DNA of 64,000 nt from a bacterium (lineage in GTDB: Bacteria > JAAXHH01): NCBI GenBank assembly GCA_963693015.1, contig OY843748.1:3651059-3715058 (forward strand), given 5' to 3'. Each line of letters starts with the position of its first letter. The first letter of the stretch is position 1. Of this stretch, positions 36,412 to 59,267 are shown one piece after another. The position numbers were made by a program, and so were the translations under genes. The notes under the pieces were generated by a model. The model had not been told where the DNA came from. It ran no database searches and saw nothing but the letters and a program-made list of their open reading frames with translations.

Positions 36412-37650
36412 ATGGAGAAGGCCTTCCTCATGAACTACAACTTCGATCAGCGTATCAATCGCAACGGAACCAATTCGTACAAGTGGGATTACGTGAAACG
36501 GGACGGGGCCGTCGTTCCGTGGGACGAGACCGACGCCAGGCGCCACGAGAAACCCGTGCTTCCGCTCTGGGTGGCGGACATGGACTTTCCGTGCCCGCGG
36601 CCGGTGGTCGACGCGGTGACCGAAATCGCCCGCATGGGCGTTTACGGATACGCCTTCCCGCCGCCCTCCTATTACGATTCCGTGGTGCGGTGGATGAAGC
36701 GGCGCCACGGCTGGACCGTCGATCCCGACACCATCTGCTTCACCCCCGGCATCGTACCCGCCCTGCACATGCTGGTTTCGGCCTATACGAAGCCGGGCGA
36801 CAGGGTGCTGGTCCAGCCCCCGGTGTACTACCCCTTCTTCAACGCCATCGAGAACCTGCAGACGCGCCCGGCGCTGAATCCGCTGCGCTATGAGAACGGC
36901 CGGTACTACATGGATTTCGACGACCTGGAAGCCCAATGCGCCGATCCCGAGGTGAAACTGGCCATCCTGTGCAGCCCGCACAACCCCGTCGGCCGGGTCT
37001 GGTCAGCCGATGAACTGCGCCGTTTCGGCCGGATCTGCATGGACAACGACGTGCTGGTCGTCTCCGATGAAATCCACTGCGACCTGATCCTCGGGGACCA
37101 CACCTTTACGGCCTACGCCACGCTGGGGCCGGAATACGAGGAACGGTCGATCATCTGCACCTCCCCCAGCAAGACCTTCAACCTCGCCGCGCTGCAGGCG
37201 TCGAACATGATGATCCCGGACGCCGATTTGCGGGAGACCTTTCAGCATACCGTCCGCAGCGCCGGCATCTTCACGCTGAACCCCTTCGGCATCGCCGCCG
37301 TCGAAGCCGCCTACGATCACGGCGAGGAATGGCTGGAGCAGTTGCTGGCCTACCTGGAGGGGAATTTCCGGTTTCTCGAGTCCTTCTTCCGCGAGCGCCT
37401 GCCCCGGATAAAGGTCATCGAAACCGAGGGCACCTATCTCGTCTGGGTGGATTTCACGAGCCTGGGCCTGGACAAGGACGCCCTCCAGCGCCTGATGATG
37501 GAGGAGGCGCGCGTCTTCCTCGACGAGGGGTACATCTTCGGCGCGGAGGGCGAGGGCTTCGAGCGGATCAACATCGCCTGCCCCCGGTCGGTCCTCGCCG
37601 AGGCGCTGGAGCGGATCGAGAGGGCGGTGAATGGGCTGAATTCTACATAA
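36412..37650 (+). CDS. MalY/PatB-type PLP-dependent C-S lyase (cystathionine beta-lyase family)
   Basis: NRNGTNSYKWD start motif, SPSKTFNLAALQ PLP-lysine region, and the C-terminal CPRSVLEEALERI typical of PatB/MalY. Confidence 0.8.
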   Translation: MEKAFLMNYNFDQRINRNGTNSYKWDYVKRDGAVVPWDETDARRHEKPVLPLWVADMDFPCPRPVVDAVTEIARMGVYGYAFPPPSYYDSVVRWMKRRHGWTVDPDTICFTPGIVPALHMLVSAYTKPGDRVLVQPPVYYPFFNAIENLQTRPALNPLRYENGRYYMDFDDLEAQCADPEVKLAILCSPHNPVGRVWSADELRRFGRICMDNDVLVVSDEIHCDLILGDHTFTAYATLGPEYEERSIICTSPSKTFNLAALQASNMMIPDADLRETFQHTVRSAGIFTLNPFGIAAVEAAYDHGEEWLEQLLAYLEGNFRFLESFFRERLPRIKVIETEGTYLVWVDFTSLGLDKDALQRLMMEEARVFLDEGYIFGAEGEGFERINIACPRSVLAEALERIERAVNGLNST

Positions 37651-37835: not shown

Positions 37836-40800
37836 ATGCCGAATCACCCATTTAAGTTCAGCAACATACGCCAATGGCGCGGGTCACAGGATCAAGCGTT
37901 CGAGGAACTGTGTTATCAACTACGTGATCCAACGCCTGATAACGCCGAATTGGTCAAGACAGGGAATCCGGACGGTGGTCTGGAGTGGTATGTCACTCTG
38001 AGTAATGGAGTACAGTGGGGATGGCAGGCGAAGTTCATATTCAAAATTGACATGCTTCTTCAACACATGAAGAAATCGCTTGAGACTGTTGTTCAAAAGC
38101 GACCGAAGTGTCGTAGACTGACTTTCTGTATTCCCTTTGATCTCCCAGACGCTCCAGGAGTTAACGAGCGCAAATCAGCCAGGCAGAAATACAAGGATGC
38201 GAAGGAGCGGTGGCGTGAACGAATCCCAGGCGCTGATCGAGTCCGGATTGAACTGTGGTCGGAGGGTGATCTTTTACAGCGACTTGTCCGTAATCCGGCA
38301 CATCGAGGTATTTCATGGTTCTTCTGGGATGAAGAGGTGTTTTCCCCCGAGTGGTGTAAGCAACGCCATTTGAAGGCTGTCAATTCAGCTGGACCGCGCT
38401 ATAGTCCTGAATTGCACATTGATCTACCAGTATCATTTGCGTTTGAGGGTCTTGCACAAACCGAAGACTTTTGGGAAAGATACCGCGCTCGTCGAAATGC
38501 CGTGCTAACTGCCACAGATGATATCAACGTTTCGGGTTACACGGGTATTGGCGTCACGGGAGAGTTAAGGACACTTGTTCAATGTCTTAAAGAGTGGAGA
38601 TTCAAGGTCCCGGAAAGGGTGGGGCTACCGACACGGCTGGACCGGAATTTGTTGGTGGATCTGACGATCACCTGTCTCAAATCCGCCAATGACGCATTTC
38701 CGCAAGATCGCCCTCGTCCAAAACGAAGCGCGGCAACAAAGAAACAAATCCACAACAACGAACGCCGTAATCGACTGAAGCGTTATCTCCACGATTTGCT
38801 CGCTGCCCTGCAAGACTTTGACGATCTGTTACTGAGTAACGCGGCGAAGGCAGCAGACGCCGGATTGATACTTCTTTCGGGGGAGGCTGGACAGGGAAAG
38901 ACACATCTTTATTGTGACGTCAGCAGACGTGCGATCGAAAATGATCAACCAGCCATTCTGATCTTCGGCGGACGCATGTCCGGAAGGCACGTTTGGTCGG
39001 AAGTCGCCGAGCAGCTTGGTCTTGAGCAAGTCGGCTCGGAGTACTTACTAGGTGCGATGCAGGCGGCAGCCGAAGCCTCGAATTCACCGTTTTTGTTGTT
39101 AATCGATGCATTGAACGAGGCCGCTGATCCACACGCTTGGCGAGAGGAACTTCCCGCGCTACTTTCCGAAGTTGATCAGAATCCATGGATTTCGGTTGGT
39201 ATTTCAGTAAGGTCGTCCTACCGTCGGATTGTGCTCCCAGATTCGGGACTTACCGACGTTGCTGAAATCGAACACACTGGATTCAGGGAGCGCGAGATAG
39301 AGGCATCAGAGGTGTTTTTCAGCGCCTTCGAACTTGAGCTGCCGAGAACCCCGAGACTCGAACCTGAGTTTACGAATCCACTGTTTCTAAAGCTCTACTG
39401 TGAAAGTCTGAAAGGTCTGGGTCTAAGCGCTCCACAGGTCGGCGGGGCGCACATGAGTGAGGTTTTCGATTGGTATCTGGAGTGTAAGGAAAGCCAAATT
39501 GTGTCCCGGTTAAAACTCGATCCGGCATCCAGACCTGTAAAGGCTGCGATCAACGCATTTAGCGAAGCGCTTGCGAAAGATAACCGCGACTATCTCGCAC
39601 GCGACCGGTGCGAACAGATAATCAATGGAATCGCTCCCCAACTGTACGAATGGCCAAATACGTTATTCGGGCAATTGCTAAGCGAGGACGTACTAACCAA
39701 AGATGTAACCTGGAAAGGTGAGGAAGCGGTTCGATTTACGTATCAGCGTTTTTCCGACTATAGGGTAGTTTCTACACTCCTAAAGCCATATAACCGTGAT
39801 CAGATTCGTTTAAGGCAAGCATTAAAACCTAGAAATCGCTTAAGAAATCGGGTTTTGAAGGTGCCGCCAGGATGGATCGAGGCGTTGTCCGTACAACTAC
39901 CCGAGCGGTTTAATATCGAACTGTTGGATGCTGCCCGCTGGCACCTCAGATCGTACACTCGTTACCAATGGGATGAAGCGTTCGTACAGAGCATCTCTGT
40001 GCGTCGCCCTTCTGCCGTAACAGAAAGAACTCGTGAAGTGCTCAGTCAAGTACACCGACGCTCTGGACTCAATGAACTCGTGCTCGAAACGGTTCTGACG
40101 GTAGCGCCACAGCCGGAACACCTTCTGAATGCGAAAGCGTTACACAGATGGCTTAAGAGACTGCCAATGCCAACGCGTGACGTGGTTTGGAGTATACCTA
40201 CTTACTTCGAATTTAACCGTGGCGGGGCGCTTGACCGCCTGATTCGTTGGTCGGCCCGGGGACCATACCCGGATTGTCCGGACGAGGCGGTTGAATTGGC
40301 CGCGATTCCTTTGATCTGGACCTTCACGTCGCCAAACCGACGAATGCGGGACTACGTTACCAAATGCCTTTCGTCGCTTCTTTCTGAACGGTTGTCAGTA
40401 CTCCCAGCGCTAATACGGAAATTCGATGGCTGTAACGATCCCTATGTCGTCGAAAGACTTGCCGTGGTCTCTCATGGTGCCGTTCTGAGCGGAGGCATCT
40501 GTAATCCCCAAGCGGCCGTTTCTATAGCTGTAGGACTGAAGAAAGTCGCGTTTGCTGAAGACCAGATCCCCAACATTATCACCAGAGATGCAGTACGAGG
40601 TGTTTACGAATGGTGCATACAACACGGTCTGATTGACGACGCCCAGTATACCTCCGTACAGCCGCCCTATGGATCCGCGCCTCCCAAGACTCCACGTACC
40701 AAGGAACAGCTTGAACGTCAGTACGATCAACAGAGGTATGTAGGTGTGACAGCGAGGTGGCCGTACTCACGGGTTTTCAACTCAGTCTTTTCAGATGACT

Positions 40801-42125
40801 TCAGTTGTTATGTAATCGATTCCAAACTCCGGAATTTCAGTCATGTGTCACTGTCATCTGTAAGGCGAAATCATGGAATAGAAGAGTGGTATCCAGTGAT
40901 GCAGGCCAAGTGCTGGGTATTTGAACGCGTGCTTTCTCTCGGATGGAAGCCTGAGTTGTTCAGCGATTTCGATCGCGATTACGTTGGACATCAGGCAGGA
41001 CGTAGCGAGCACAAAATAGAGCGTTTTGGCAAGAAGTACCAGTGGATGGCTCTCCAGGAGTTGATCGCGCGGGTTGCGGACAACTTTCAAATGACAGAAA
41101 ATATCGACTATCAGGGACCGTGGCAGTTCTTCAGCCGAGACGTCGATCCCACGCTACCCCCTCCCTCTCTTGAACGTATTGAGGATGACAGTTTCAGGTT
41201 GCATTCAACCTTTTCCCCGACCAAAGCGGACCTGTGGTCTCCGCCCGGACCGAGTTATCGTCATAACGACCCGGTGGCAGGAGAAGATTGGGGGACGAAC
41301 ACTGATGATGTACCCGGATTTGAAACACTGATTAGAAATAAGGACGAAGACGGAATCCATTGGGTGGTCTTGCACGCGCACTACAACTGGGATGAAGAAA
41401 TCCCTGAGGGCAAGCACTGGTGGAGCCAGCGTCACCGTAGTTTCTGGTCTCACATTTACAGTTGGCTCGTCCATCCTGCTGATCAGCCAAAGCTTACCCG
41501 GAATCTAAATAGACATTCGTTAAAGGGACGATGGATGCCCGTAGGGCTTGAGCACGCTGACGCAGCATATCTCGGTGAATTGCCATGGGCCAAAGCGGCA
41601 AACTCGCATTCTACAACATCAGATAGGATAAGATGGCCGCATCACCCGATTCAACTCAAACATGACGTCCACCCAACCTGGATCGAGTACCTTTGGGAAG
41701 GTAACGTTCTTGACTGTTCAATAAATGATGGCGTTCACGCTTGGCTACCTACGCCTATCCTATGCACCCAAGCCAAACTCAGATGGCGACCTGGTACTCG
41801 TGAGTGGGTAACGCCTAACGGTACTACAGTGGTCCAGCACTGCGAACGCGAGCGTCACATGGTGTTGTTAGTACGTGAGTCCTGGTTGAAGAGGACAATT
41901 CGACAGACTGGTCATTCTATCGTTTTTGGCTGGCTCGGCGAAAAAAAACTGCTTGAGGCTGGATTTTCTACCGGATTGGTAGGTGATTGGACAGAGATAA
42001 ACGGAATTGCTACGCTGGTAGAAAACCAATGGGATTTTGGGAAACCACGACTGGAAAGACATATAGTCAATCGTCAGGTGGATTCATACGATACCATACA
42101 ACCGGCAGATCATACTTCTGCTTGA
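37836..42125 (+). CDS. STAND-class P-loop NTPase (NACHT-like) with N-terminal PD-(D/E)xK-like domain; candidate antiviral STAND (Avs/bNACHT-like) protein
   Basis: Walker A GEAGQGKTHL (about aa 340) and NACHT-type Walker B LLLIDALNEA (hhhhDxhxE). N-terminal GNPDGGLEWYV...QAKF is consistent with a PD-x(n)-E-x(n)-QxK nuclease core. A roughly 900-aa C-terminal helical region follows. The gene sits in a low-GC insertion. Confidence 0.65.
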   Translation: MPNHPFKFSNIRQWRGSQDQAFEELCYQLRDPTPDNAELVKTGNPDGGLEWYVTLSNGVQWGWQAKFIFKIDMLLQHMKKSLETVVQKRPKCRRLTFCIPFDLPDAPGVNERKSARQKYKDAKERWRERIPGADRVRIELWSEGDLLQRLVRNPAHRGISWFFWDEEVFSPEWCKQRHLKAVNSAGPRYSPELHIDLPVSFAFEGLAQTEDFWERYRARRNAVLTATDDINVSGYTGIGVTGELRTLVQCLKEWRFKVPERVGLPTRLDRNLLVDLTITCLKSANDAFPQDRPRPKRSAATKKQIHNNERRNRLKRYLHDLLAALQDFDDLLLSNAAKAADAGLILLSGEAGQGKTHLYCDVSRRAIENDQPAILIFGGRMSGRHVWSEVAEQLGLEQVGSEYLLGAMQAAAEASNSPFLLLIDALNEAADPHAWREELPALLSEVDQNPWISVGISVRSSYRRIVLPDSGLTDVAEIEHTGFREREIEASEVFFSAFELELPRTPRLEPEFTNPLFLKLYCESLKGLGLSAPQVGGAHMSEVFDWYLECKESQIVSRLKLDPASRPVKAAINAFSEALAKDNRDYLARDRCEQIINGIAPQLYEWPNTLFGQLLSEDVLTKDVTWKGEEAVRFTYQRFSDYRVVSTLLKPYNRDQIRLRQALKPRNRLRNRVLKVPPGWIEALSVQLPERFNIELLDAARWHLRSYTRYQWDEAFVQSISVRRPSAVTERTREVLSQVHRRSGLNELVLETVLTVAPQPEHLLNAKALHRWLKRLPMPTRDVVWSIPTYFEFNRGGALDRLIRWSARGPYPDCPDEAVELAAIPLIWTFTSPNRRMRDYVTKCLSSLLSERLSVLPALIRKFDGCNDPYVVERLAVVSHGAVLSGGICNPQAAVSIAVGLKKVAFAEDQIPNIITRDAVRGVYEWCIQHGLIDDAQYTSVQPPYGSAPPKTPRTKEQLERQYDQQRYVGVTARWPYSRVFNSVFSDDFSCYVIDSKLRNFSHVSLSSVRRNHGIEEWYPVMQAKCWVFERVLSLGWKPELFSDFDRDYVGHQAGRSEHKIERFGKKYQWMALQELIARVADNFQMTENIDYQGPWQFFSRDVDPTLPPPSLERIEDDSFRLHSTFSPTKADLWSPPGPSYRHNDPVAGEDWGTNTDDVPGFETLIRNKDEDGIHWVVLHAHYNWDEEIPEGKHWWSQRHRSFWSHIYSWLVHPADQPKLTRNLNRHSLKGRWMPVGLEHADAAYLGELPWAKAANSHSTTSDRIRWPHHPIQLKHDVHPTWIEYLWEGNVLDCSINDGVHAWLPTPILCTQAKLRWRPGTREWVTPNGTTVVQHCERERHMVLLVRESWLKRTIRQTGHSIVFGWLGEKKLLEAGFSTGLVGDWTEINGIATLVENQWDFGKPRLERHIVNRQVDSYDTIQPADHTSA

Positions 42126-42291
42126 TTGTAAGGGAAAGCAACCGAGAGACTTAGTTCGCTATAAATGATGAAATTGACTTCGAGAATACAATCTCCTCTT
42201 CGACTGAAGAACATAAGACAAAGAAGAAATGCTCCAGCGCAATCTCAGACTTTTTAAAGTACTATCGGGTCTAAAGTAAAGGGGCAGTCCG

Positions 42292-43470
42292 ATGCCATTC
42301 ATAGAACGCCTTCGCTTAGGCGGCCTGCTGTCTTTTCCTCCGGACATGGAGTTCTTCGACTTACGCCCTCTGAACGTCCTGATTGGTCCGAACGCGTCGG
42401 GGAAATCCAACTTCATAGAGGCGCTGGAACTGCTACGGGCCTTGCCTGTGGACTTCGCCGCCGCGATCCGGGACGGCGGCGGTGCGGAAGAGTGGTTGTG
42501 GAAAGGCGATCATCCACCCGCCCCCGCGGCAATAGAAGTGGAAACCGGTCCCGGCATGGAAACCGGTCGACATTTAGAGTATCGTCTGTCGTTCACCGCA
42601 GCGGGCCAGCGGGTCCGGATCCTCGACGAGGCCATCGAAGAGGCGCCTGCACAACAGGCATCCGAGCCGTACTTCCACTACACGTTTCAACAAGGACGCC
42701 CGGTAATCAATGTTCGAACGCCCGGTGGACAAGTATCCGAGAGACAGGTAAAGTGGGATAATCCTTCGCTGGATCAATCCGTTCTTGCACAAAGAAAAGA
42801 CGCTTATCGTTATCCGGAACTTTACTGGCTTGGTTTGCGATTCCAATCGATCCAGACGTTCCGGGAATGGACGTTTGGTCGTTACGGCTCGCTCCGACGG
42901 CCGCAACGAGCCGATCTCCCGGAGAACCGGCTACTTCCCGATTCTGGTAATCTTCCGTTGGTCCTCAACCACATTGAGCATACGACCGGCGTGGTCTTCA
43001 ATGAACATCTGAAACGGTTCTTCCCCCGATTCGAGCGGATGTCCACGTCGATCTCGGGGGGCACCGTGCATTTCTACCTGCACGAATCCGGCTTCGGCAC
43101 GCCGATCCCCGCAACGCGGCTGTCCGACGGCACCATCAGATTCATCGCGCTGCTGGCCACTCTGCTTACCCCGACGCCTCCATCGCTGGTATGCATCGAG
43201 GAACCCGAACTCGGACTGCATCCCGACGCAGTGGCGCTGCTCGCCGACCTGCTGGTTGAAGCCTCCGACCGGATGCAACTCGTGATCACTACGCATTCCG
43301 ATGCCCTGGTGTCGGCGCTGACCAATCAACCAGAGGCCATCGTCGCCTGTGAACGCCCCGGGGCCGCCACCGAGTTGCGCCGCCTCGACGCGGAACGCCT
43401 GGCCGGTTGGCTTGAGAAGTATCAACTAGGCGACCTGTGGCGCATGGGCGAGATCGGGGCAAACCCTTGA
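42292..43470 (+). CDS. AAA_21/ABC-type ATPase (OLD/PtuA/AriA-like defence ATPase family)
   Basis: Walker A LIGPNASGKSNFIEAL, Walker B LVCIEEPELGLHP, and a split ABC ATPase with a long insertion. Confidence 0.75.
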   Translation: MPFIERLRLGGLLSFPPDMEFFDLRPLNVLIGPNASGKSNFIEALELLRALPVDFAAAIRDGGGAEEWLWKGDHPPAPAAIEVETGPGMETGRHLEYRLSFTAAGQRVRILDEAIEEAPAQQASEPYFHYTFQQGRPVINVRTPGGQVSERQVKWDNPSLDQSVLAQRKDAYRYPELYWLGLRFQSIQTFREWTFGRYGSLRRPQRADLPENRLLPDSGNLPLVLNHIEHTTGVVFNEHLKRFFPRFERMSTSISGGTVHFYLHESGFGTPIPATRLSDGTIRFIALLATLLTPTPPSLVCIEEPELGLHPDAVALLADLLVEASDRMQLVITTHSDALVSALTNQPEAIVACERPGAATELRRLDAERLAGWLEKYQLGDLWRMGEIGANP

Positions 43471-44105
43471 GGAGGAGTGTCAGCATCTATCTTGAAGGCG
43501 GAGGCGATACTTCTGGTACGAGGGCGGCGCTCCGCCATGGAATGGATACGTTCCTTCAGCCGCTGAAGCAAGCGGCCAGGGACAAGGCGCTACGTTGGAA
43601 ACTGGTCGCCTGCGGTACGCGCAGGGAAGCTTACAAAGGGTTTCGAAACGCTATACACGATCTTGAAAGAGATGAGGTCGTCGTCTTACTGGTGGACGCG
43701 GAAGGACCGGTAAACCGGTCGGCGTCCGAACACCTGCGAAACCGCGATGGTTGGGATTTCAGCCTTGCTTCAGACTACGGGGTTCAACCTGACGACGTGG
43801 TACATCTTATGGTGGAGACGATGGAAACCTGGATCGTGGCGGATCCGCACACGTTAGGCGTTTACTACGGCCAGGGATTCAGGACAAATGCACTACCCAA
43901 AGCGCAGAACCTTGAAACCGTTACCAGGATTGATGTCGCGCACAGTTTGAAGGAGGCGACAAGGCAGACCCGGAAAGGATCATATCACAAGATCAAACAC
44001 GCGAGCGACCTTTTGCGGCGGATCGACGTGGAAAAAGTAAAGCGACGCTGTCGTCACTGCCGGTTGCTGTTCGAGAGACTCGGGCCACTGGTCGACGCGG
44101 CCTGA
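43437..44105 (+). CDS. DUF4276-family protein (partner of AAA_21 ATPases)
   Basis: SIYLEGGGD near the N-terminus matches the family (i-hVEG..D signature). The more likely start is the TTG at 43467, overlapping the ATPase stop (TTGA), which suggests translational coupling. Confidence 0.6.
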   Translation: MAHGRDRGKPLRRSVSIYLEGGGDTSGTRAALRHGMDTFLQPLKQAARDKALRWKLVACGTRREAYKGFRNAIHDLERDEVVVLLVDAEGPVNRSASEHLRNRDGWDFSLASDYGVQPDDVVHLMVETMETWIVADPHTLGVYYGQGFRTNALPKAQNLETVTRIDVAHSLKEATRQTRKGSYHKIKHASDLLRRIDVEKVKRRCRHCRLLFERLGPLVDAA

Positions 44106-44372
44106 AATCCTGGATCAGGGGGCTTTGGTACCGTCAGCAGGTCGGCGCGGGCCAAGTCCAAAGTGAACGTGTTCCGAAGTCGTTTTCTCCTGCATCCTGT
44201 CGCCCGCCTCATGTTTGCTTCCACTTCGGATCGTGCAGCCCCCGTTGTCACACGGTGTCACACAACCGGGAAGGTCGGATGGATGGGCGGAAACCCCCGT
44301 TTCCGTCACTTTGATGACGATCAGGCACTGGCTCATGATCCTTGCCCCTTCGCAATCTGCTGAAAACGTTAC

Positions 44373-44399
44373 TTGACCATCCGCGATTTCATCTATAAT
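44373..44399 (+). promoter_or_regulatory. sigma70-like promoter candidate (TTGACC - 15 nt - TATAAT) upstream of the halogenase/RiPP operon
   Basis: Perfect -10 hexamer 37 nt upstream of ATG 44436. The RBS AAAGGA is 8 nt before the start. The spacer is short (15 nt). Confidence 0.4.
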
Positions 44400-44435
44400 T
44401 AGAAAAACTGACCGATACCTGCGAAAGGACGTGGG

Positions 44436-45716
44436 ATGATACGGCCGGGCGCTGAATCGTTGCGGAAGATCGCGGTCATCGGACAGGGAACCGCGGGCTC
44501 CCTGGCGGCCGCCAGTGTAACGCGTCTTCTCTCCGACGACGACCACGAACTGCATCACATCTACGACTCGCGCATTCCGGTCATCGGCGTGGGCGAAGGC
44601 AGTTGGCCGAGTCTGGTACAGGAACTGCACCAGCTGACGAATCTGCCCCACGCAACCGTCCAGCGGCGCTTGAACGGAACCCGCAAGTACGGCGTCGCAT
44701 TCGAGGGATGGGGGTGCCGCAGCCGGGATTTCACCCACTACTTCACGCCGCAACAGGTATCCTATGCCTACCATTTGTCCGCCGACGTGCTGGCGGAGCT
44801 GTTGCGCGAAAGCACGCGCGCGCGCCACGTCGACGCGAACGTGCGCGACATCAAAACCCTGGAGGACGGCGCGCAAGTCGAGTTCGACGGCCGGGCGCCG
44901 GAACGCTACGACCTGGTCTTCGATGCGCGCGGATTCCCGAAAGAACTCCATCCCGACCGGCACATCGACATTTCCTTCATTCCCACCAATACGGCCGTCA
45001 TCCGGCGCTGCCCGGCCGTCATCGCGGAAGAGCGGGACGGGCCGGTCGTGAAGCATACCTACACCCGTGCCGTTGCACGTCCCCACGGCTGGATATTCGT
45101 CATTCCGCTGACGGTGCACACCTCCTACGGGTACATCTTCAACCGCGATATATCCAGCCTCGAAGAAGTCGAATCGGACTTCGACGCCTTCCTTGAAGCC
45201 GATGGCGTGCCGGAATTCGAGCAGCGCGCCGTCATTCCGTTTCCCAACTTCATCCATCGCCGGATCTACGATGGCGCCGTGGCCCGCGTTGGCAACGCGG
45301 CGGCCTTCATGGAGCCCCTGGAGGCCACGGCGATCGTATCTGCCCAGCTGCAAATCGGGATGGTGTTGCAGACGCGTCTGAACCGGCCGGCAGAGCATCT
45401 CGCGCCCGACGCGCCGGTGGTCAACCGGTTTCTCGTCGACAACATGCTCTGCTACGGCCTGTTCGTCGGCTGGCACTATTGCCGTGGCTCCAGGTACGAC
45501 ACCACGTTCTGGCGTCACGCCCGAAACGACGTGTGGCCCCGTCACCGCGACGCGGCAGCGCCCGAGGCGGTGGATTGCGCCGCACTCGGCAAATTCGATG
45601 GGATGTTCGAGCTACTGAATCAACCGGTCATCGACAAATCGGATTGGGACCGGATGTGCGCGGTACCGCTTACCAGCTACGCCCAGGTGTCCCAGGGGCT
45701 GGGCTGCCAAAAGTGA
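44436..45716 (+). CDS. flavin-dependent halogenase (tryptophan-halogenase family, PF04820-like)
   Basis: N-terminal KIAVIGQGTAGSLAA (GxGxxG) and the GWIFVIPL motif (the WxWxIP signature of FADH2-dependent halogenases). Size is about 426 aa. Confidence 0.8.
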   Translation: MIRPGAESLRKIAVIGQGTAGSLAAASVTRLLSDDDHELHHIYDSRIPVIGVGEGSWPSLVQELHQLTNLPHATVQRRLNGTRKYGVAFEGWGCRSRDFTHYFTPQQVSYAYHLSADVLAELLRESTRARHVDANVRDIKTLEDGAQVEFDGRAPERYDLVFDARGFPKELHPDRHIDISFIPTNTAVIRRCPAVIAEERDGPVVKHTYTRAVARPHGWIFVIPLTVHTSYGYIFNRDISSLEEVESDFDAFLEADGVPEFEQRAVIPFPNFIHRRIYDGAVARVGNAAAFMEPLEATAIVSAQLQIGMVLQTRLNRPAEHLAPDAPVVNRFLVDNMLCYGLFVGWHYCRGSRYDTTFWRHARNDVWPRHRDAAAPEAVDCAALGKFDGMFELLNQPVIDKSDWDRMCAVPLTSYAQVSQGLGCQK

Positions 45717-45809
45717 CATTACTTGATTCGGGATGCGTATAACTTCATATTATATATCTAAATAAAGTAGTTTTGACTTGCTCGACAACCGGGAGGCATT
45801 GCTACAGTC

Positions 45810-46514
45810 GTGTTCAACAATCCATTAAACTCATTCCATGATACCGTTGCCGAAGCGAAGGAAGAGCGGGAACAGCTCGACCGGTTGCTGACGATTTCCA
45901 CGCCGCGGGAGCGTCTGCTCGTCGTCGCGATCGCGGTTGTGCTGTGCGTCACGCTGGCATGGCTTTTCTATGGCAGCGTAGCGCATAGTATTGCGGTGGA
46001 CGGCGTACTGTCCGCATCCGGGCTAGTCGAAGCCCCGTCCGGTCAAGTCGAAGTCCCGGCCGAGCGGGGCGAAAACGGGTCCGTTCAAGTCGAAGCCCCT
46101 GCCGGGCAAGGCGAAAAATCGACCGTTCAAGTCGAAGCCCCTGCCGGGCAAGGCGAAAAATCGACCGTTCAAGTCGAAGCCCCGGCCGAAGGCAGCCGGT
46201 CCGTGCAGGCCCTCGCCTGGATCGACGGCGGTATCGCGCCGCAGATCGAAGCCGGGATGCCGGTGGTGATCGAGCCGGATCCGGCAGATGGAGAACCCGG
46301 CGCGCTGGGCGGAACGGTCCGGGCGATCTCCGCCGTGCCCTTTGCCGGGGCGCTGGCGGCCTTCGAATCCGGGGCGCCGGCGTCCGTGCACCGTATCGAT
46401 ATCGCCCTCGAAGAGAGTCTTGATCCGGATTCCCTTGCGGGCAGGAAATGCCGGATCGTCATCGAGCTGGGCAGGCAATCTCCGATCACGCTGTTTCGAA
46501 TGAGGCGGCCATAG
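45810..46514 (+). CDS. HlyD-like membrane-fusion/secretion protein, unusually short (NHLM bacteriocin-system type)
   Basis: Cytoplasmic N-terminus, a single TM (LLVVAIAVVLCVTLAWLFYG) and a C-terminal beta-rich region. The coiled-coil region is replaced by VQVEAPAGQGEKST repeats. Start is a GTG. Confidence 0.55.
   Translation: MFNNPLNSFHDTVAEAKEEREQLDRLLTISTPRERLLVVAIAVVLCVTLAWLFYGSVAHSIAVDGVLSASGLVEAPSGQVEVPAERGENGSVQVEAPAGQGEKSTVQVEAPAGQGEKSTVQVEAPAEGSRSVQALAWIDGGIAPQIEAGMPVVIEPDPADGEPGALGGTVRAISAVPFAGALAAFESGAPASVHRIDIALEESLDPDSLAGRKCRIVIELGRQSPITLFRMRRP
46039..46206. repeat. 42-bp tandem repeat x4 (two perfect copies) encoding (S)VQVEAPAGQGEKST
   Basis: Seen directly. Perfect copies are 46081-46122 and 46123-46164. 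Confidence 0.85.
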
Positions 46515-46588
46515 GATGTCGAAGCGCATATCCACGGCCAGGCGTCGAAGCGCCAGGTCCTCCAGAACTCGAATGAGGCAACCATAGG

Positions 46589-48802
46589 ATGTCGACGAGC
46601 ACCTCCAGGGGAGCCAGAGGCAAGGCCTCCTCGGATAAATCAGACCAGCGGGTAACCACGCCGATTCTGTTGCAGATGCACGCTTCAGAATGCGGCGCCG
46701 CCTGTCTGGGCATCGTACTGGCCCACTTCGGGAGATGGGTACCGCTTACCGAACTGCGCGAGAAATGCGAGGTGAGCCGGGACGGCAGCAGCGCCGCAAG
46801 CATCCTGCGTGCCTCCAGGCACTATGGGCTCGAATGCAACGGGCTCAGCGTACGCGTCGATCAACTGCACATGCTGCCGTTGCCCCTGATCCTGTTCTGG
46901 CAGTTCAGCCATTTCGTCGTCCTCGAGGGATTCGATGGCCGTAACTTCTACCTCAACGACCCTGCCACGGGACGCCGCCGCCTTTCCGCCGAAGAGTTCG
47001 AGTCGGGCTACAGCGGCATAGCGCTTCGCTTCAAGCGCGGCAAAGACTTCGAGTCCGGTGGCGAGCAGCCCGACTTGTTCCGGCAACTGGGCGCCTTGCT
47101 CGCCGGATCGTGGAGATCGCTTGCCGGGGTGTTTGCCTGCGGACTCATGTTGACGTTGCTGACGCTGATCATTCCCGCGTCGATCGGTGCCTTCGTCGAC
47201 GACGTCATGGAAACGCAAGGGGCCTGGGGCGGTTTGGTGACCGCCCTGCTTGGCGGCGGCGCCCTGGTATACGTCCTTTCCCTGCTCAAGAACCGGTTCC
47301 TCAAGCGGCTCGCGGTCAGGGTGTCGGTGACCGGCTACAGCCGCGGGATGTCGCGGCTGCTGCGGTTGCCGGTGGAGTTTTTCGAACACAGGCTGACGGG
47401 CGATCTGACCGACCGGGTCTCGTCCACCGACCGGATCGCGAAGAACCTGGCGGACCAGTTCCTGGTGCTCATCATCGACGTGGCCATGAGCCTGGTGTTC
47501 CTCGCGGCGATGTTCGCCTTCGACGTCCTGCTCACGCTGATCGTGCTTTTGCTGGCGCTGCTGCACGGTCTGCTGGCCCACTTCCTCAACGCCCTTCGGG
47601 CCGTTCGAAGTCAGGCGATGCGGCGCGAGCAGGGACTGCTGATCGGCCTCGGCATGCAGATGCTGAGTCACGCCGACAATCTGCGCATGACGGGCGCGGA
47701 CGATCGGTTTTTCTCGCGCTGGAGCGGTCAACAGGCCCGCGAACTGCGCGCGCGCCAGCTCTATGCCGAACTGGGCGCCGTCAATACCTCGCTTCCGGGC
47801 CTGGTCGACGCCCTGCGCAGCGCGGCGATACTCGCCATCGGCGGCAGCATGGTCCTGAACGGAGCCATGACCCTGGGGACGCTGGTCGCCTTCTACATCC
47901 TGGCGGAGATGTTCCTGACGCCCGTCGAGCGCTTCCTGGCCTTCGCCGAAAACCGCCAGGCGCTCGAAACCGATCTGCAACGACTCGAGGACGTCTCCAG
48001 GACCGATGAAGATCCCGTTTTCAGCCGCAGAAGCCAGGAGTCGGAATCGGTCCCCACGTTCAACGGCCGGCTCCAACTCGCGGGCCAGCTCGAACTGCGG
48101 AACGTCACCTTCGGTTTCAACAGGAGCCGGCCGCCCCTGATAAAGGACTTCAACCTCGTGATCAAGCCGGGACAGCGGGTCGCCGTGGTCGGTCCCAGCG
48201 GTTCCGGCAAGTCGACGCTGGCGCGGCTGGTTTCGGGGGTCTATCAGCCCTGGTCGGGCGAAATCCTGTTCGACGAGGGCCATCTGCGGGATCAGATCCC
48301 GGAGGAAGTGCTGCGGCAGTCCATATCCATGGTGGATCAGGAGGTCGTGCTCTTCTCCGCGTCCCTGCGCGACAATATCACGCTGTGGAACCCGGCCGTT
48401 CCGGATGAAGTCCTCTTCGCCGCGACGCGGGACGCCCGGATCCACGACGAAATCCTGGTCAGACCGCAGGGATACGCGTCCCTCGTCGAAGAAGGCGGGG
48501 CGAATTTCAGCGGCGGCCAGCGGCAACGGCTGGAAATCGCCCGCGCGCTGGTGGGGAACCCGACGGTGCTCATTCTGGACGAGGCCACCAGCGCCCTCGA
48601 TGCCGCGACGGAGGAATACGTCGACGATGCCCTGCGGCGTCGCGGCGTCACCTGCCTGATCGTGGCGCACCGGCTGAGCACCGTGCGGGACTGCGATGAG
48701 ATCATCGTGCTCGACAAAGGCGCCACCGTGCAACGCGGCACGCACGACGAGTTGATCGCGGATCGGAACGGCGCCTACTACAACCTGGTCAGATCGAACT
48801 GA
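46589..48802 (+). CDS. peptidase-C39 domain ABC exporter (double-glycine leader-cleaving bacteriocin/RiPP transporter)
   Basis: N-terminal QMHASECGAACLGIVL (C39 catalytic Cys) and HFVVLEGFDG (His). Six TM helices, Walker A GPSGSGKST and signature LSGGQRQRLEIARAL. Confidence 0.85.
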   Translation: MSTSTSRGARGKASSDKSDQRVTTPILLQMHASECGAACLGIVLAHFGRWVPLTELREKCEVSRDGSSAASILRASRHYGLECNGLSVRVDQLHMLPLPLILFWQFSHFVVLEGFDGRNFYLNDPATGRRRLSAEEFESGYSGIALRFKRGKDFESGGEQPDLFRQLGALLAGSWRSLAGVFACGLMLTLLTLIIPASIGAFVDDVMETQGAWGGLVTALLGGGALVYVLSLLKNRFLKRLAVRVSVTGYSRGMSRLLRLPVEFFEHRLTGDLTDRVSSTDRIAKNLADQFLVLIIDVAMSLVFLAAMFAFDVLLTLIVLLLALLHGLLAHFLNALRAVRSQAMRREQGLLIGLGMQMLSHADNLRMTGADDRFFSRWSGQQARELRARQLYAELGAVNTSLPGLVDALRSAAILAIGGSMVLNGAMTLGTLVAFYILAEMFLTPVERFLAFAENRQALETDLQRLEDVSRTDEDPVFSRRSQESESVPTFNGRLQLAGQLELRNVTFGFNRSRPPLIKDFNLVIKPGQRVAVVGPSGSGKSTLARLVSGVYQPWSGEILFDEGHLRDQIPEEVLRQSISMVDQEVVLFSASLRDNITLWNPAVPDEVLFAATRDARIHDEILVRPQGYASLVEEGGANFSGGQRQRLEIARALVGNPTVLILDEATSALDAATEEYVDDALRRRGVTCLIVAHRLSTVRDCDEIIVLDKGATVQRGTHDELIADRNGAYYNLVRSN

Positions 48803-48830: not shown

Positions 48831-51797
48831 ATGCCGGAATACACGTCCATAGCCGAACTCGCCGCCCGCTTCGGCGAGTCCGTGCCCTGCGCGGGCAACC
48901 TGCCGGTCGAACTCGTCGACCCGGAGAGCGTCTGGTTCATCGATCAGGGCGCCGTCAATCTGTTCCTGGTCGAATTCAGGGACGGGGTGGAACAGGCCGC
49001 GCCCCAGCATCTGCTGCGCCGGGAATCGGGCTGGTTGCTGCCGGGTGTCGCGCCGGACCGGGGGGACAGCGACGAAGACACCACGCTCAGCATCATCGCC
49101 AAGGGACTGCCGGGCACCCTGCTGAAACGTCTGCCGGCCGCCTTGCTGTCCCGGGTACGTCCGTCGGAACTGGCGGAACAGACCGATACCTGGCTGACCG
49201 CCATTACCGAGACGCTGGCGCGTTACGCGATTCCCCTTCCCCGGCCGGATGCGCTGGCCGAACCCGGCCTGACGCAGACCCTGGCCCCGTGTACGCTATC
49301 CGTACGGCGCGGCGTGGCATGGGTTACCGAACCGCCGTCCGGCGCAAGCCTGTACATGGGTATCGTAGACTACGCGGACAGTGCGGGAGCGAGCGGCCCC
49401 CATGGTCCGGGCGGTCCGCACGGCCCGCACGACGCGGTCGTTCCGCTGACGCGGACGAGCTGGCTCACCTTGACCGACGAGGCGACGCTGACAGGCCAAT
49501 CCACTGAAACGCTGGCGGAGCAAGGCGTGCTGCTGCCCGCCCTCGCCGCTTTTCACGCGGTTGCCTTCACCCTGGAACGCCTGAACCGCCGACTGGTCGT
49601 GGTCGACGCCGTCAATCTCGAACGCGCGCAGATCGCCAGCCGCCGCACGGCCGAGAAAACCGCCCGGCAGCGGCTCTACAATATCTATGACCGTCCGTCC
49701 GGCCGGGATGCCGGCATTGAGGACACGGCACTGACGGATGCCCTGAAGCTCGTCGGCCGCCATGAAGGCATCGATTTCAAGATTCCGGCGCCGTCGGGCC
49801 AGGCCGATGCTCGGGTCGGCCTCGTCGACGTTCTTGAAGCGTCGGGCGTGCGGGCCCGGCGCGTGCGATTCAAAGACGAGGGCAGCTGGTGGCGCGGCGA
49901 CAGCGGAGCGATGCTGGCGTTCCGCGCCGGGGACGGCCAGCCCGTGGCGCTGCTGCCGGGCATGTTCGGACGGTACCGGGAAGTCGACCCGGTCACCAAG
50001 CGGAGCGTCCGGGTTACGGCGGCCCGCCTGGACGGCGCGGGCAAACTGGCGGATGAAGCCTGGACGTTCTATCGGCCCTTGCCGCCGGGGGACGTGAAAC
50101 CGGCGGATCTGCTGAGAATCGCCCTGCACGGCGCGGCTCCGGATCACGTACGGCTGGTCATGGCCGGGCTTCCGGGCGGCCTGATCAAACTGCTGCCGGC
50201 GATCGCCCTCGGGTTCGTTGCCCATCAGGTATCGGCGGGCGGCAGCGCGGGAACGCTCTATGCCGTCGCCGTGGCGGTGGCGGCCTTCGGCCTGCTCGGC
50301 GCATTGCTGCACCTGCTTCAGAGCACGGCGATGATGCGGCTCGAAGGGCGCTCCGGCTCCCGGGTCGAAGCGGCCTTCTGGGACCGTCTCATGCGCCTTC
50401 CCTCAAGCACGCTGCACCGACATCCGGCCGGCGATCTGGCGATGACGGGCATGACGTTCCAGCATCTTCGCGACGGCCTGCAGGGCGTCGTCGCCAACGG
50501 CTTTCTGTCGATCATCTTCCTCCTTCCGGTTTTTGGCGTCATCTTCTTCTACGATGCCGCCCTCGGTGTCATCACCCTCGCCTTCAGCCTGGTTTCGCTG
50601 CTGGTCACCGTCGTACTGGGGTTGCGCCAGATTTCGCCTTACGGGTGGATGATTACCGCGTCGCGTCGCGTGGCCGGCCGGCTGTTCCAGATCGTGGGCG
50701 GCATCTCCAAGCTGCGCATGGATAACGCGGAAGGGTCGGCTTACGCCATCTGGGCGAAGCACTATCGCGAGCAGAAGCGCGCGGAGATCGAACTCGGGGC
50801 GCTGGAAGGCCATTCGCGGGCCCTTGGCGCCGCCCTTCCCTTTCTTGCCGGCGGGGTGCTGCTTTACGCGGTGGCATCGGGGGGAGACCGGAACGTTCCG
50901 GTCGGCGATTTTCTCGTCGTCTACATCGTCTTCATCGTCTTCCAGTCCGCCATCGCCCGGCTCGGCGAGTCCTTCGGCGCCATTGCCGCGATGCTGCCGT
51001 CCTTCCAACAGATGCGCCCGATGCTCTCGGCGGTTCCTGAAACCGGGACCGAGGGCGAGCCGGTCGAATATCTGGGCGGCGACATATTGTTCGACCGCGT
51101 TTCCTTCCGCTACGATCCCGATGGTCCGTTGATACTCGACGACGTCACAATTCGCGCCCATCCCGGCGAATTCGTCGCCATTGCCGGTGAATCCGGCGCC
51201 GGCAAGAGCACCCTGTTCCGGCTCGCCCTCGGTATCGACTGGCCGACCGCCGGCGCGGTGTATTACGACGGACGCGACCTGCGGCACCTGAATCTGAAGC
51301 AGGTGCGCCGCAAGATCGGCGCGGTGCCGCAATCCATCGGCCTTCATCCTCAGGATCTGTGGGACAATCTGGTCAGCCACCACGATGCCGTGACGACCGA
51401 GGAAGTCTGGGCGGCGGCCCGGACCGCCGAAGTCGAAGCCCAGATCAAGGACATGCCCATGGGCATGATGACCATGGTGGGCGCCAGCGGGTCCGTCCTG
51501 TCGGGCGGCGAGAGCCAGCGCATCGCAATCGCCCGCTCGGTGATCGGCAACCCGCGAATCATGCTGTTCGACGAGGCGACGAACTGGCTGGACAACGAAA
51601 ACCAGTCCAGGGTCATGGGGAACATCGCCGGCCTGACTTCCACCCGCCTCGTCATCGCCCACCGCCTGTCCACGCTGGAACAGGCCGACCGCATCTACGT
51701 GCTGCAGGCCGGGCGAGTCGTGCAAAGCGGTTCCTTTACGGAACTTATGGAGGCCGACGGGGTATTCAAAGAGCTGATCAGAAGGCAGATCGCCTGA
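48831..51797 (+). CDS. NHLM-type bacteriocin ABC exporter, ATP-binding/permease protein with long N-terminal domain
   Basis: About 480-aa N-terminal non-transporter region, then 6 TM, Walker A GESGAGKST and signature LSGGESQRIAIARS. Its pairing with a C39-ABC and an HlyD matches the TIGR03794/03796/03797 trio architecture. Confidence 0.7.
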   Translation: MPEYTSIAELAARFGESVPCAGNLPVELVDPESVWFIDQGAVNLFLVEFRDGVEQAAPQHLLRRESGWLLPGVAPDRGDSDEDTTLSIIAKGLPGTLLKRLPAALLSRVRPSELAEQTDTWLTAITETLARYAIPLPRPDALAEPGLTQTLAPCTLSVRRGVAWVTEPPSGASLYMGIVDYADSAGASGPHGPGGPHGPHDAVVPLTRTSWLTLTDEATLTGQSTETLAEQGVLLPALAAFHAVAFTLERLNRRLVVVDAVNLERAQIASRRTAEKTARQRLYNIYDRPSGRDAGIEDTALTDALKLVGRHEGIDFKIPAPSGQADARVGLVDVLEASGVRARRVRFKDEGSWWRGDSGAMLAFRAGDGQPVALLPGMFGRYREVDPVTKRSVRVTAARLDGAGKLADEAWTFYRPLPPGDVKPADLLRIALHGAAPDHVRLVMAGLPGGLIKLLPAIALGFVAHQVSAGGSAGTLYAVAVAVAAFGLLGALLHLLQSTAMMRLEGRSGSRVEAAFWDRLMRLPSSTLHRHPAGDLAMTGMTFQHLRDGLQGVVANGFLSIIFLLPVFGVIFFYDAALGVITLAFSLVSLLVTVVLGLRQISPYGWMITASRRVAGRLFQIVGGISKLRMDNAEGSAYAIWAKHYREQKRAEIELGALEGHSRALGAALPFLAGGVLLYAVASGGDRNVPVGDFLVVYIVFIVFQSAIARLGESFGAIAAMLPSFQQMRPMLSAVPETGTEGEPVEYLGGDILFDRVSFRYDPDGPLILDDVTIRAHPGEFVAIAGESGAGKSTLFRLALGIDWPTAGAVYYDGRDLRHLNLKQVRRKIGAVPQSIGLHPQDLWDNLVSHHDAVTTEEVWAAARTAEVEAQIKDMPMGMMTMVGASGSVLSGGESQRIAIARSVIGNPRIMLFDEATNWLDNENQSRVMGNIAGLTSTRLVIAHRLSTLEQADRIYVLQAGRVVQSGSFTELMEADGVFKELIRRQIA

Positions 51798-51851: not shown

Positions 51852-53168
51852 GTGAAAACGGAGTGGAAAACGATGAAGAAGCCCTTTGACGTGACGGGTT
51901 ACCTGCAGTCGCGTGCCGACGACGACCACGACTTCCGGGAACGTCTTCTCGCCAGGCCCAGGGAAACCATCGAAGAGGAATTCGGCGTGACGATGGCCAG
52001 AGACCATGAGATTCACGTCCACGAAGAATCCTATGCTTCGACGCACGTTGTCCTGCCGCCGCGTAGCAAATACACCAAGGCGGAACAGGAAGAAGCGAGA
52101 ACCGGCGCGGCCTCGCTCGAGTTCCTTCGCAAGACGATGTCCGATCCCGCGCCGCCCCTGCGTCCGCCCGCGGGTGAAGGGGAAAGCGTTTCCGGATTCT
52201 CCGGTACCCCCGAGGCGCTTGCAGACGCGGCCAGAGAGCGCATCCGCCGCGGCCTCGTCTTCCTGGAATCCGCCATAGACGAAAGGGGCGCCTGGCACTG
52301 TATCCGATTCAACGTGGGCGACCCGAATATCCCGCGGCATTTCGAAAGACCCGCCTTCATATCGGCTTACTGCGTCCTTGCCCTGGAGTATTGCCGGGAG
52401 GCGCGGGCCCGGTCCATCTGCGCCGCGGCCAGGGCGTATCTTGCCGACACCATCGAATACCCCGGATTCTGGCGCTATTACCGCCATCTGCCCCAGGATC
52501 TCGACAGCACCACGCTTTCTTCGCTTGTGATTGGAACGCACCCCTGGATCCTGCTGGAGCGAAACGTTCCGCGGATACTGGCGAATCGCGACGGGGAAGG
52601 CCGTTTCATGACCTGGGTGCTGACGGAAGACGAACCCGACGTCGTGTCGCGCTTTCGCATCGAAGCCGACCCCGTCGTCAATGCGAACGTCATCGCCTAT
52701 CTCGGCGACCGCCCGGAAACCAGGGAAGCGCAGCGATGGCTGGAAGCGCTGGTAGCCGAAGGCGATCTCGCGGGGTCGTCCAAATGGTATCCCGACGAGG
52801 TGGCCATCTACTATGCGATCGCCCGCGCCATGGGTCGCGCCGAGCCCGCGCTGAGTGGCCTGCGCCCGGTACTCGCGGACCGTGTCCTCGGCTTGCAGGA
52901 CGACAGTGGAGATTTCGGCAACGTCCTTCAGACCGCCCAGGCCGTGTCGGTGCTCCACGAAGTCGGACGCCTTGACCGCATCGACGCGAAACGCCAGGCG
53001 GAAAGACTCTTATGTTCCCAGCGCGAGGACGGCAGCTGGCCGGAACTCCTCGCCTTTGGAGACCAATCGTTGAAGTGGGGCGCAGTAGGACAGATCGGAC
53101 ACGGATCCGAAGCCGTGACCTCTGCGTTCTGTATCGAAGCGCTCGAGCGCCTCGTCACGTACCTGTGA
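51852..53168 (+). CDS. NHLP-type leader domain fused to prenyltransferase/terpene-cyclase-like alpha/alpha-toroid domain
   Basis: Residues 20-70 (DHDFRERLLARPRETIEEEFGVTMARDHEIHVHEESYASTHVVLPP) align position-by-position with the precursor at 59393-59644 and with the NHLP consensus. The C-terminal 350 aa carry QxxDGSW-like repeats (QREDGSWPE, LQDDSGDFGN, NRDGEGRF). Confidence 0.6.
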   Translation: MKTEWKTMKKPFDVTGYLQSRADDDHDFRERLLARPRETIEEEFGVTMARDHEIHVHEESYASTHVVLPPRSKYTKAEQEEARTGAASLEFLRKTMSDPAPPLRPPAGEGESVSGFSGTPEALADAARERIRRGLVFLESAIDERGAWHCIRFNVGDPNIPRHFERPAFISAYCVLALEYCREARARSICAAARAYLADTIEYPGFWRYYRHLPQDLDSTTLSSLVIGTHPWILLERNVPRILANRDGEGRFMTWVLTEDEPDVVSRFRIEADPVVNANVIAYLGDRPETREAQRWLEALVAEGDLAGSSKWYPDEVAIYYAIARAMGRAEPALSGLRPVLADRVLGLQDDSGDFGNVLQTAQAVSVLHEVGRLDRIDAKRQAERLLCSQREDGSWPELLAFGDQSLKWGAVGQIGHGSEAVTSAFCIEALERLVTYL

Positions 53169-58148: not shown

Positions 58149-59267
58149 ATGAATATCGACGAAGCCGTTCTGCTTACCCAGGATCGTCTCGCCGAAGAGG
58201 GCGGCACGCTGGCGGAATTGCTCGGGCGCTTCAGGAGCCGGGTTTCACCGAGCCTTATCGGGGAGCGGGAATGGACGCTCATACTGGAACGCGCAAAGCA
58301 ACTCCCCATCTCCATGGGCGCCCAGCCCTTCGGCTTTGAATTGCCGCTCCATGACAGCCGGCCCGTGGCGGATTTCGGCGTCTCGCTGGCGAGCGGGAAC
58401 CGGTCAGGCAATTTCTATGAAGCGCGGGCGCGAACGGACGAGACGGACGAGACCGCAAGTGCGGTCGGTCGGCTGTTCGCGGAAATGGAAGCCCGGGACT
58501 CGCCGCTGCGGGAGATCGTGGGACGCAAGCTGATGCTGGAGTATGACATCGGCTCGGCGCACGGGAACAAGGCGTCGCTGCCTGGGTTGTTCCTGCGGCC
58601 CAACGAACGCACCTTGTCCGGTGGCGGAGGCCTTGCGCGTGACGTCGGGATCGTGGTTGACGCCCTGGTTTCCAGCGTCGGCTGGGAAAGGATCGACGCC
58701 GAACGGAAAAACGTCGAGCGGGTCTACCTGGCGCAGCCCGACGACACGCGCATGGATTCCTTCGGCGTATTCCCGTCCCGGGAACGAACGATCCGCCTGG
58801 CGGTCATGGGCTTCAACGGACAGGAGGCCCTCTGTTCTTATCTGGAAGCCACCGACTGGCCGGGGCGTATTTCGGCTGTCGAGTCCGTGATTTCACGCTT
58901 GAAGGAACGGGCGGATATCGTGAGTACGGGTGTGAATATCGACGTGCGGGCAGACGGACTGGGGCCGACGCTCGGCCTTACGCCCATCGTCAAGCAGAGA
59001 TATACGAATGACAGCCGCTACTGGATCGACGGCCAGACCGATTGGGAGCCTATCCTCGAAGCCCTGAGGTATGAGGACTGCGTCGTACCGGAGAAGCTTG
59101 CGGCGCTCGGCGACTGGGCGTCGAAACCGACCACGCTGTTTGGCCGTACCGGCCCCTTCGTCATGTTACGCGGCATACATCACGTAAAGCTGGTCATATC
59201 CGGAAACAGACTGGAGAAGGTCAAGGCCTATCTCTACATGGTGCTTTCCGGAGCGCTCTCGATTTAA
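58149..59267 (+). CDS. hypothetical protein (372 aa), last gene of the RiPP-like operon
   Basis: Protein-like composition, 10-bp gap to the YcaO gene. No motif recognised by eye. Confidence 0.5.
   Translation: MNIDEAVLLTQDRLAEEGGTLAELLGRFRSRVSPSLIGEREWTLILERAKQLPISMGAQPFGFELPLHDSRPVADFGVSLASGNRSGNFYEARARTDETDETASAVGRLFAEMEARDSPLREIVGRKLMLEYDIGSAHGNKASLPGLFLRPNERTLSGGGGLARDVGIVVDALVSSVGWERIDAERKNVERVYLAQPDDTRMDSFGVFPSRERTIRLAVMGFNGQEALCSYLEATDWPGRISAVESVISRLKERADIVSTGVNIDVRADGLGPTLGLTPIVKQRYTNDSRYWIDGQTDWEPILEALRYEDCVVPEKLAALGDWASKPTTLFGRTGPFVMLRGIHHVKLVISGNRLEKVKAYLYMVLSGALSI

Follow-up and report, generated by a model that had tools for sequence, protein, structure and literature searches.

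What does the flavin-dependent halogenase encoded at positions 44436-45716 of the stretch studied here act on, and to which pathway does it belong? The stretch, referred to below as the window, comprises 64,000 nucleotides of a bacterial contig (GenBank assembly GCA_963693015.1, contig OY843748.1, positions 3,651,059 to 3,715,058 of the forward strand). It is highly probable, in our judgement, that the gene is an orthologue of SrpI, the two-component halogenase dependent on reduced flavin adenine dinucleotide (FADH2) from the sponge-derived proteusin (srp) cluster, and that it is accompanied by the corresponding pathway. Membership in the halogenase family and fold, conservation of the catalytic residues, orthology to both SrpI and its precursor peptide SrpE, and the gene content of the cluster are directly observed.

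The reading frame is genuine, as a preliminary description of the window had claimed. It is intact on the plus strand, with 426 codons from an ATG start preceded at 7 nt by an AAAGGA Shine-Dalgarno sequence, and its codon statistics are gene-like (GC content of 0.80 at third codon positions vs 0.44 at second positions). A longer N-terminus is ruled out because of an in-frame stop at 44409. The 426-aa protein scores 158 bits with the Pfam Trp_halogenase profile (PF04820; cutoff 21 bits, E = 4.8e-46); the exact protein has no entry in the assembly index. The gene and its diagnostic motifs are as follows.

44436-45716, plus strand: flavin-dependent peptidyl-tryptophan halogenase, SrpI-orthologous, 426 aa (Pfam, SrpI identity, AlphaFold model, PDB fold matches)
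44481-44498, plus strand: GxGxxG FAD-binding motif GQGTAG, residues 16-21 (G16, G18 and G21 invariant in 77 orthologues)
44685-44687, plus strand: codon of the catalytic Lys84, within TRKYGVAFEGW (pairs with MibH Lys102; SrpI Lys84 numbering)
45087-45107, plus strand: GWIFVIP, residues 218-224, clade variant of the GWxWxIP signature (sequence and orthologue alignment)
45312-45323, plus strand: EPLE, residues 293-296, within FMEPLE296AT (pairs with fvEPLEs of MibH; invariant in 77 orthologues)

In the alignment with MibH, Lys84 lies opposite Lys102 and EPLE opposite the fvEPLEs of that enzyme. The second Glu of EPLE (Glu296) is the counterpart of the conserved halogenase Glu, which is Glu346 in PrnA. 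G16, G18, G21, K84, W219, F221, P224, E293 and E296 are invariant across the 77 orthologues, and Lys84 is also invariant in 105 distant relatives; the catalytic Lys/Glu pair, for which an alignment check had been proposed beforehand, is thus present. One of the two motifs on which the earlier family assignment rested, GxGxxG, is found as GQGTAG, whereas the other, given as GW(I/x)W(V/x)IP, actually reads GWIFVIP, the second Trp being replaced by Phe221, a residue that SrpI shares. A scan of 1.84 billion cluster representatives returned 2288 relatives, and the full-length sequences among the best 150 were aligned. The halogenase falls among short halogenase-like proteins (360-450 aa) with GWxFxIP, a large group in which nearly all full-length members retain the Lys and EPLE, while long relatives (about 500 aa or more) have mostly retained GWxWxIP. 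Judged from these alignments, Phe221 is a trait of the clade, not a defect. This short GWxFxIP family is large and mostly uncharacterised; SrpI is a member, and MppI probably is as well.

The fold agrees with the family. Among solved structures the top sequence match is MibH (5UAO; E = 3e-26), the comparator suggested in the preliminary description, ahead of PyrH, PrnA, RebH and Thal, with sequence alignments to PDB halogenases reaching only about residue 365 of 426. An AlphaFold run on a shallow alignment (46 orthologues, 81-87% identity) gave a mean predicted local distance difference test score (pLDDT) of 39.6; the model used for fold comparison came from a 105-sequence alignment that included relatives of 24-64% identity, and reached a pLDDT of 94.5 and a predicted template-modelling score of 0.93. 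All of its top 50 matches in the PDB are flavin-dependent halogenases, with query-normalised template-modelling (TM) scores of 0.74-0.80 at about 21% identity. Target-normalised TM scores are lower (0.61-0.71) because the PDB targets are roughly 70-100 aa longer. Profile score, retention of Lys84 and Glu296 and these fold matches together uphold the assignment to the FADH2-dependent halogenases.

The founding paper of the srp cluster is reportedly that of Nguyen et al. (JACS 2021). SrpI is a flavin-dependent halogenase found in sponge metagenomes with MibH as the search hook, and is the peptidyl tryptophan-6-brominase of the srp proteusin cluster from the metagenome of the sponge Smenospongia aurea (PMC10286304; PMC10858898). 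It acts on the proteusin precursor SrpE, where it brominates C6 of the indole in the C-terminal Trp; in the SrpE core, LCCCW, the YcaO protein SrpC first turns the three Cys into thiazolines. It is an obligate brominase that does not chlorinate and that requires the leader, which it binds at NLTEEQL (residues 66-72 of SrpE), the SrpE substitution Leu67Ala lowering its activity (PMC10286304; PMC10858898). The Lys84Ala variant of SrpI is inactive, and the enzyme brominates itself at Tyr102 and Tyr110; it leaves free Trp unbrominated and brominates free indole at C3; and it has been reconstituted with the foreign reductase RebF and works in Escherichia coli without added reductase (PMC10286304; PMC10858898).

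Identity with a CHARACTERISED enzyme is provided by this same SrpI, to which the window protein is 79% identical (88% positives) over residues 1-424 of its 426. Lys84, Tyr102 and Tyr110 carry the same numbers in both proteins. The SrpI and SrpE sequences were machine-read from the supplement of PMC10286304 and probably contain a few errors, which would explain six alignment gaps. The presumed substrate is encoded in the same window.

59393-59644, minus strand: NHLP (proteusin) precursor, SrpE-orthologous, 83 aa (78% identity to SrpE; core LCCCW at 59396-59410)

This precursor gene converges on the cluster from the opposite (minus) strand. Its product ends in ...EAVSAG followed by LCCCW, a core identical to that of SrpE, and carries NITEEQL at residues 66-72, the same residues as NLTEEQL in SrpE. 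Among full-length precursor orthologues from the related loci that were fetched, all 35 have the LCCCW terminus and 32 have NITEEQL. The claim that the core ends in a single Trp is thereby confirmed, and the further claim that this Trp core is what the enzyme halogenates is supported by sequence comparison, the precursor being 78% identical to SrpE with the same LCCCW and the halogenase 79% identical to SrpI.

From the biochemistry of SrpI we infer the halide (bromide), the ring position (indole C6 of the core Trp), the need for the leader and the sequence of the steps. On that analogy the pathway would begin with synthesis of the 83-aa NHLP precursor (59393-59644, minus strand), after which the YcaO protein (55650-58139), presumably the SrpC equivalent, would cyclodehydrate the three Cys of LCCCW and so make three thiazolines. 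The halogenase would then bind the C-terminal part of the leader, around NITEEQL at residues 66-72, and form hypobromous acid at its flavin from FADH2 (delivered by a generic cellular flavin reductase), O2 and bromide, with Lys84 as the halogen-directing residue. Lastly, the C39-peptidase ATP-binding cassette (ABC) exporter (46589-48802), predicted to cleave the leader after ...SAG, would secrete the product.

The same evidence bears on other explanations of the gene. One is that it encodes a peptide chlorinase of the MibH kind, working on the finished, leaderless core to yield chloro-Trp, not bromo-Trp. The preliminary description had drawn this analogy, and no solved structure is closer in sequence than MibH (E = 3e-26), but the protein is about 21% identical to MibH as against 79% to SrpI, SrpI shows no chlorination and needs the leader, and the window precursor has the motif for SrpI binding at the same positions of its leader. 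We therefore find such a chlorinase improbable; the leader dependence expected of the window enzyme is the opposite of the behaviour of MibH, which acts after leader removal.

Slighter still are the chances that the enzyme is a free-tryptophan or indole halogenase supplying a building block with no tie to a ribosomal peptide. The Pfam family name and database labels reading 'tryptophan 7-halogenase' would fit such a role, as would the bromination of free indole at C3 by SrpI; yet SrpI left free Trp unbrominated, the protein is about 100 aa shorter than enzymes of the PrnA/RebH type (hence the target-normalised TM scores of 0.61-0.71), and the gene adjoins srp genes wherever flank recovery sufficed, despite rearrangements. 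The strict GWxWxIP of PrnA and RebH reads GWIFVIP here, and the protein is therefore not filed among the canonical free-Trp halogenases of that type; with 426 aa it also falls short of their length of about 510-550 aa, which includes a large C-terminal Trp-binding module. That the gene encodes a flavin monooxygenase which shares the fold but does not halogenate, for instance a QhpG-like peptidyl-Trp hydroxylase, is barely credible. In its favour are a weak NCBIfam QhpG match (23 bits vs a cutoff of 240) and the Phe in place of the second Trp of WxWxIP, a Trp said to hold substrates off the flavin. Against it, neither the catalytic Lys nor the Glu varies among the orthologues, SrpI, at 79% identity and with the same Phe, has been proven to halogenate, and the top 50 fold matches include no monooxygenase, the grouping that the preliminary description had wished to see checked.

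Several points weigh against the gene being an SrpI orthologue with the srp pathway. The two halogenases differ at 21% of residues, and the choice of bromide over chloride in the window enzyme is argued by analogy. The second Trp of the canonical GWxWxIP is Phe, as it is in SrpI. Position 67 of the leader is Ile and not the Leu of the tested SrpE, a residue that is Ile in 32 of the 35 natural precursors. In the literature, the final srp natural product has been called cryptic and its ecological role elusive (sponge metatranscriptome preprint).

By its gene content, the window carries an srp-type proteusin cluster of about 15 kb around the halogenase. Its remaining genes lie downstream of the halogenase gene.

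45810-46514, plus strand: short HlyD-like NHLP-bacteriocin secretion protein, 234 aa (TIGR03794, N-terminal part only)
46589-48802, plus strand: NHLP-family export ABC transporter with C39 peptidase domain (TIGR03796, 857 bits, above cutoff; Pfam Peptidase_C39)
48831-51797, plus strand: second NHLP export ABC permease/ATPase (TIGR03797, 651 bits)
51852-53168, plus strand: 438-aa protein, NHLP-leader-like N-terminus fused to an alpha/alpha-toroid-like domain (TIGR03793 and NHase_alpha at residues 18-82)
53254-55653, plus strand: fatty-acid-desaturase domain fused to a GlnE-like nucleotidyltransferase domain (family profile matches)
55650-58139, plus strand: E1-like/YcaO cyclodehydratase (Pfam YcaO, 310 bits; TIGR03604, TIGR03882)
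58149-59267, plus strand: conserved 372-aa protein (synteny; no family match)

The HlyD-like protein has 234 aa vs 421 in the TIGR03794 model and is 46-58% identical to its counterparts in related loci. A 42-bp tandem repeat lies inside its gene at 46018-46188 (3.6 copies, 89% match, encoding a 14-residue unit). The 438-aa protein consists of a leader-like part of about 80 residues and a domain of about 340 aa with a weak squalene-cyclase repeat at residues 355-399; it is without an LxxxxL motif, its C-terminus is not Trp, and it is 66-81% identical in most srp loci where the region was recovered. The desaturase-GlnE-like fusion is likewise kept in srp loci; in some of these it has been relocated to the opposite flank of the halogenase gene, identity then being 49-60%. 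A second desaturase, standing alone, is found at 27321-28565. The 372-aa protein has no sequence match in Pfam, NCBIfam or the PDB; in related loci its gene lies directly 3' of the YcaO gene (or of the NHLP-fusion gene if YcaO has moved), before the convergent precursor gene. Directly beyond the precursor gene, a 163-aa fragment of a DUF772/IS5-type transposase (59817-60308, minus strand) marks the downstream edge of the cluster.

Two absences accord with what is known of SrpI. No SagB-type dehydrogenase was seen among the cluster genes, which fits thiazolines rather than thiazoles. The absence of a flavin reductase from the window, noted already in the preliminary description, was borne out by a Pfam scan of about 50 gene-like open reading frames (ORFs), nearly all of those called, which revealed no such domain; this fits an enzyme like SrpI, for which RebF suffices in vitro and the reductases of the host in E. 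coli. In one related locus (L017), the 2.5-kb gap between precursor and halogenase genes contains no obvious flavin-reductase ORF, its translations, judged by eye, resembling unrelated envelope proteins.

Is the halogenase gene the first of an operon, as had been proposed? Relatives were sought in one genome per GTDB species; 215 stretches encode them, and the best 80 (L001-L080) were examined. The proteins of these 80 are 78-87% identical to the window halogenase, and all come from metagenome-derived genomes labelled as Gemmatimonadota, Alpha-, Gamma- and Deltaproteobacteria, Latescibacterota, Binatia, Acidobacteriota, Nitrospinota and others, about ten phyla in total. Many bear sponge-type labels, such as Spongia_Bin9 and Poriferihabitaceae. 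The gene set around the halogenase is shared by about 80 loci, but the place of the halogenase itself is not conserved.

Halogenase gene before the HlyD and ABC genes on the same strand, as in the window: 19 loci
Precursor gene upstream of the halogenase gene, usually about 2.5 kb off: 25 loci
Halogenase gene on the opposite strand to HlyD: 32 loci (17 adjacent, 15 more than 1.5 kb away)
Other arrangements: 4 loci

Being first in an operon thus holds for the window by position and does not hold as a general rule (19 of 80 related loci). In the window, 93 nt with 38% GC separate the halogenase and HlyD-like genes, vs mostly 182-427 nt in loci of the same arrangement, and no plus-strand terminator was found in these 93 nt, so that co-transcription of the halogenase with the exporter genes is possible. 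In the other arrangements the halogenase gene evidently works as a unit of its own.

The region upstream of the halogenase contains the following features.

37836-44105: low-GC (50-53%) defence island (PADLOC: 1429-aa Avs2, 1133 bits)
42292-43470: HEC-01A (AAA_21 ATPase)
43437-44105: HEC-01B (DUF4276)
44246-44263, plus strand: TGTCACAC-GG-TGTCACAC direct repeat, probably not functional (1-2 nt off the coordinates given earlier)
44373-44399, plus strand: putative promoter-like TTGACC-15 nt-TATAAT (sequence read directly)

The window flank from 27.9 to 37.6 kb is syntenic with six related loci (L001, L003, L006, L009, L011, L019) at 80-86% nucleotide identity, several of which are labelled Gemmatimonadota or Gemmatimonadetes (L001, L003, L006). 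In these syntenic relatives an aminotransferase gene (36412-37650 in the window) abuts the halogenase upstream. In the window these two genes are separated by a low-GC insert of about 6.5 kb with the Avs2 and HEC-01A/B defence genes; the defence island is therefore an insertion at the cluster boundary. HEC-01 also occurs upstream of the halogenase in three other loci (L002, L015, L022). Similarity to all relatives starts only at 44413-44424, just 5' of the halogenase start codon, and blastn finds nothing in the closest syntenic relatives that matches the stretch 44106-44412, in which both the repeat and the promoter-like hexamers lie.

Two regulatory claims had been made for this stretch. The hexamers of the sigma-70-like promoter are indeed there (TTGACC at 44373-44378 and TATAAT at 44394-44399), but their spacer is 15 nt, a scan for the sigma-70 consensus with 16-18 nt spacers called no promoter in 44000-46700, and the stretch around them is not conserved in the closest syntenic relatives. 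About 9 of 76 loci do have a similar ATCCGC..TTTCATCTATA(A/T/C)T box. The TGTCACAC repeat, which had been put forward as a mark of regulated expression of the operon, sits in the non-conserved junction beside the inserted defence island. It was not found within 250 nt upstream of the halogenase in any of the 76 other loci with readable upstream sequence. The window as a whole yields 47 overlapping hits for 8-mer direct repeats with gaps of 0-5 (about 22 sites) vs 8.7 hits in Markov simulations, and with about 22 such sites in the window the TGTCACAC site is not notable. Absent from the other loci and no rarer than chance, it was rejected as a regulatory element.

The identity of 78-87% across about ten phyla, along with four main gene arrangements, points to repeated horizontal transfer of the cluster and to rearrangement within it. 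A bolder scenario goes further, and we regard it as doubtful. The halogenase would be an independently placed and transcribed module of a phylum-crossing cluster, found in at least four positions; the insertion of Avs2 and HEC-01 would have replaced the ancestral upstream DNA and either uncoupled halogenase expression from the exporter operon or newly coupled it thereto; and the conserved, uncharacterised partner proteins (the NHLP-toroid fusion, the desaturase-GlnE-like fusion and the 372-aa protein) could make the bromo-Trp tris-thiazoline peptide only an intermediate on the way to a further product. Elsewhere in the window lie genes for a collagen-repeat/trypsin-like protein, a sulfatase and NHL-repeat proteins (18455-19660, minus strand; 24665-26128, plus strand; 34022-36142, minus strand; 62366-63214, minus strand). 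Such gene content is typical of sponge symbionts and fits a putative origin in a marine-sponge microbiome.

The analysis assigns a function with high confidence to the halogenase gene and its cluster of about 15 kb. Since the enzyme of which it is an orthologue has been published and characterised biochemically, and the cluster family is likewise published and widespread, the gene is in that sense already known. Srp clusters have been described as ubiquitous in sponges, with an LCCCW core, bromination of the terminal Trp and an ITEEQL leader consensus, and as transcribed across phyla (sponge metatranscriptome preprint); in a separate study, srp is one of the clusters named as conserved from one sponge species to another. 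The window thus adds one more copy of a proteusin cluster that is, according to the literature, ubiquitous, transcribed across many phyla and specific to sponge microbiomes. What remains of interest is that the cluster is mobile and that its conserved partner genes are unexplained, points that concern the cluster as a whole and not the assignment of the halogenase. Because SrpI-type enzymes can serve to brominate peptides and proteins site-specifically, natural variants such as this halogenase are candidate alternative biocatalysts.

Among known systems, the free-tryptophan halogenases PrnA, RebH, PyrH, Thal and SttH have in common with the window halogenase the fold that binds the flavin, the GxGxxG motif, the catalytic Lys and Glu and a two-component mechanism with FADH2; those enzymes are about 100 aa longer, have a larger C-terminal substrate module and the strict GWxWxIP, act on free amino acids and are 20-22% identical to it. 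MibH (5UAO), the Trp-5 chlorinase of the lanthipeptide NAI-107, has the same fold, an aligned Lys102 and EPLE Glu and a peptidyl-Trp substrate, but is about 21% identical, has 541 aa vs 426, reads GWCWTIP, chlorinates, and acts once the leader has been removed. MppI, the lanthipeptide Trp-5 brominase of Moorena producens, was found via its sequence similarity to SrpI and, likened here by description, is SrpI-like in depending on the leader, in brominating only and in its catalytic Lys73; it differs in its Nif11-leader precursor, its macrocyclic lanthipeptide substrate with an internal Trp, its attack at indole C5 and its other mode of leader engagement (PMC11791876). In the relatives of 37-51% identity the sequence begins about 10 residues after the start of the window protein, so that their Lys would fall near position 73, that of the Lys in MppI. 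Nearest is the SrpI system, from which the window differs in 21% of halogenase residues and in a leader reading NITEEQL where SrpE has NLTEEQL. Their likeness extends over the full length of the enzyme (79% identity, the same size, Lys84, Tyr102 and Tyr110, GWIFVIP and EPLE) and over the system around it, with an identical LCCCW core, an NHLP leader, a YcaO protein in the cluster and a cluster that has no reductase of its own.

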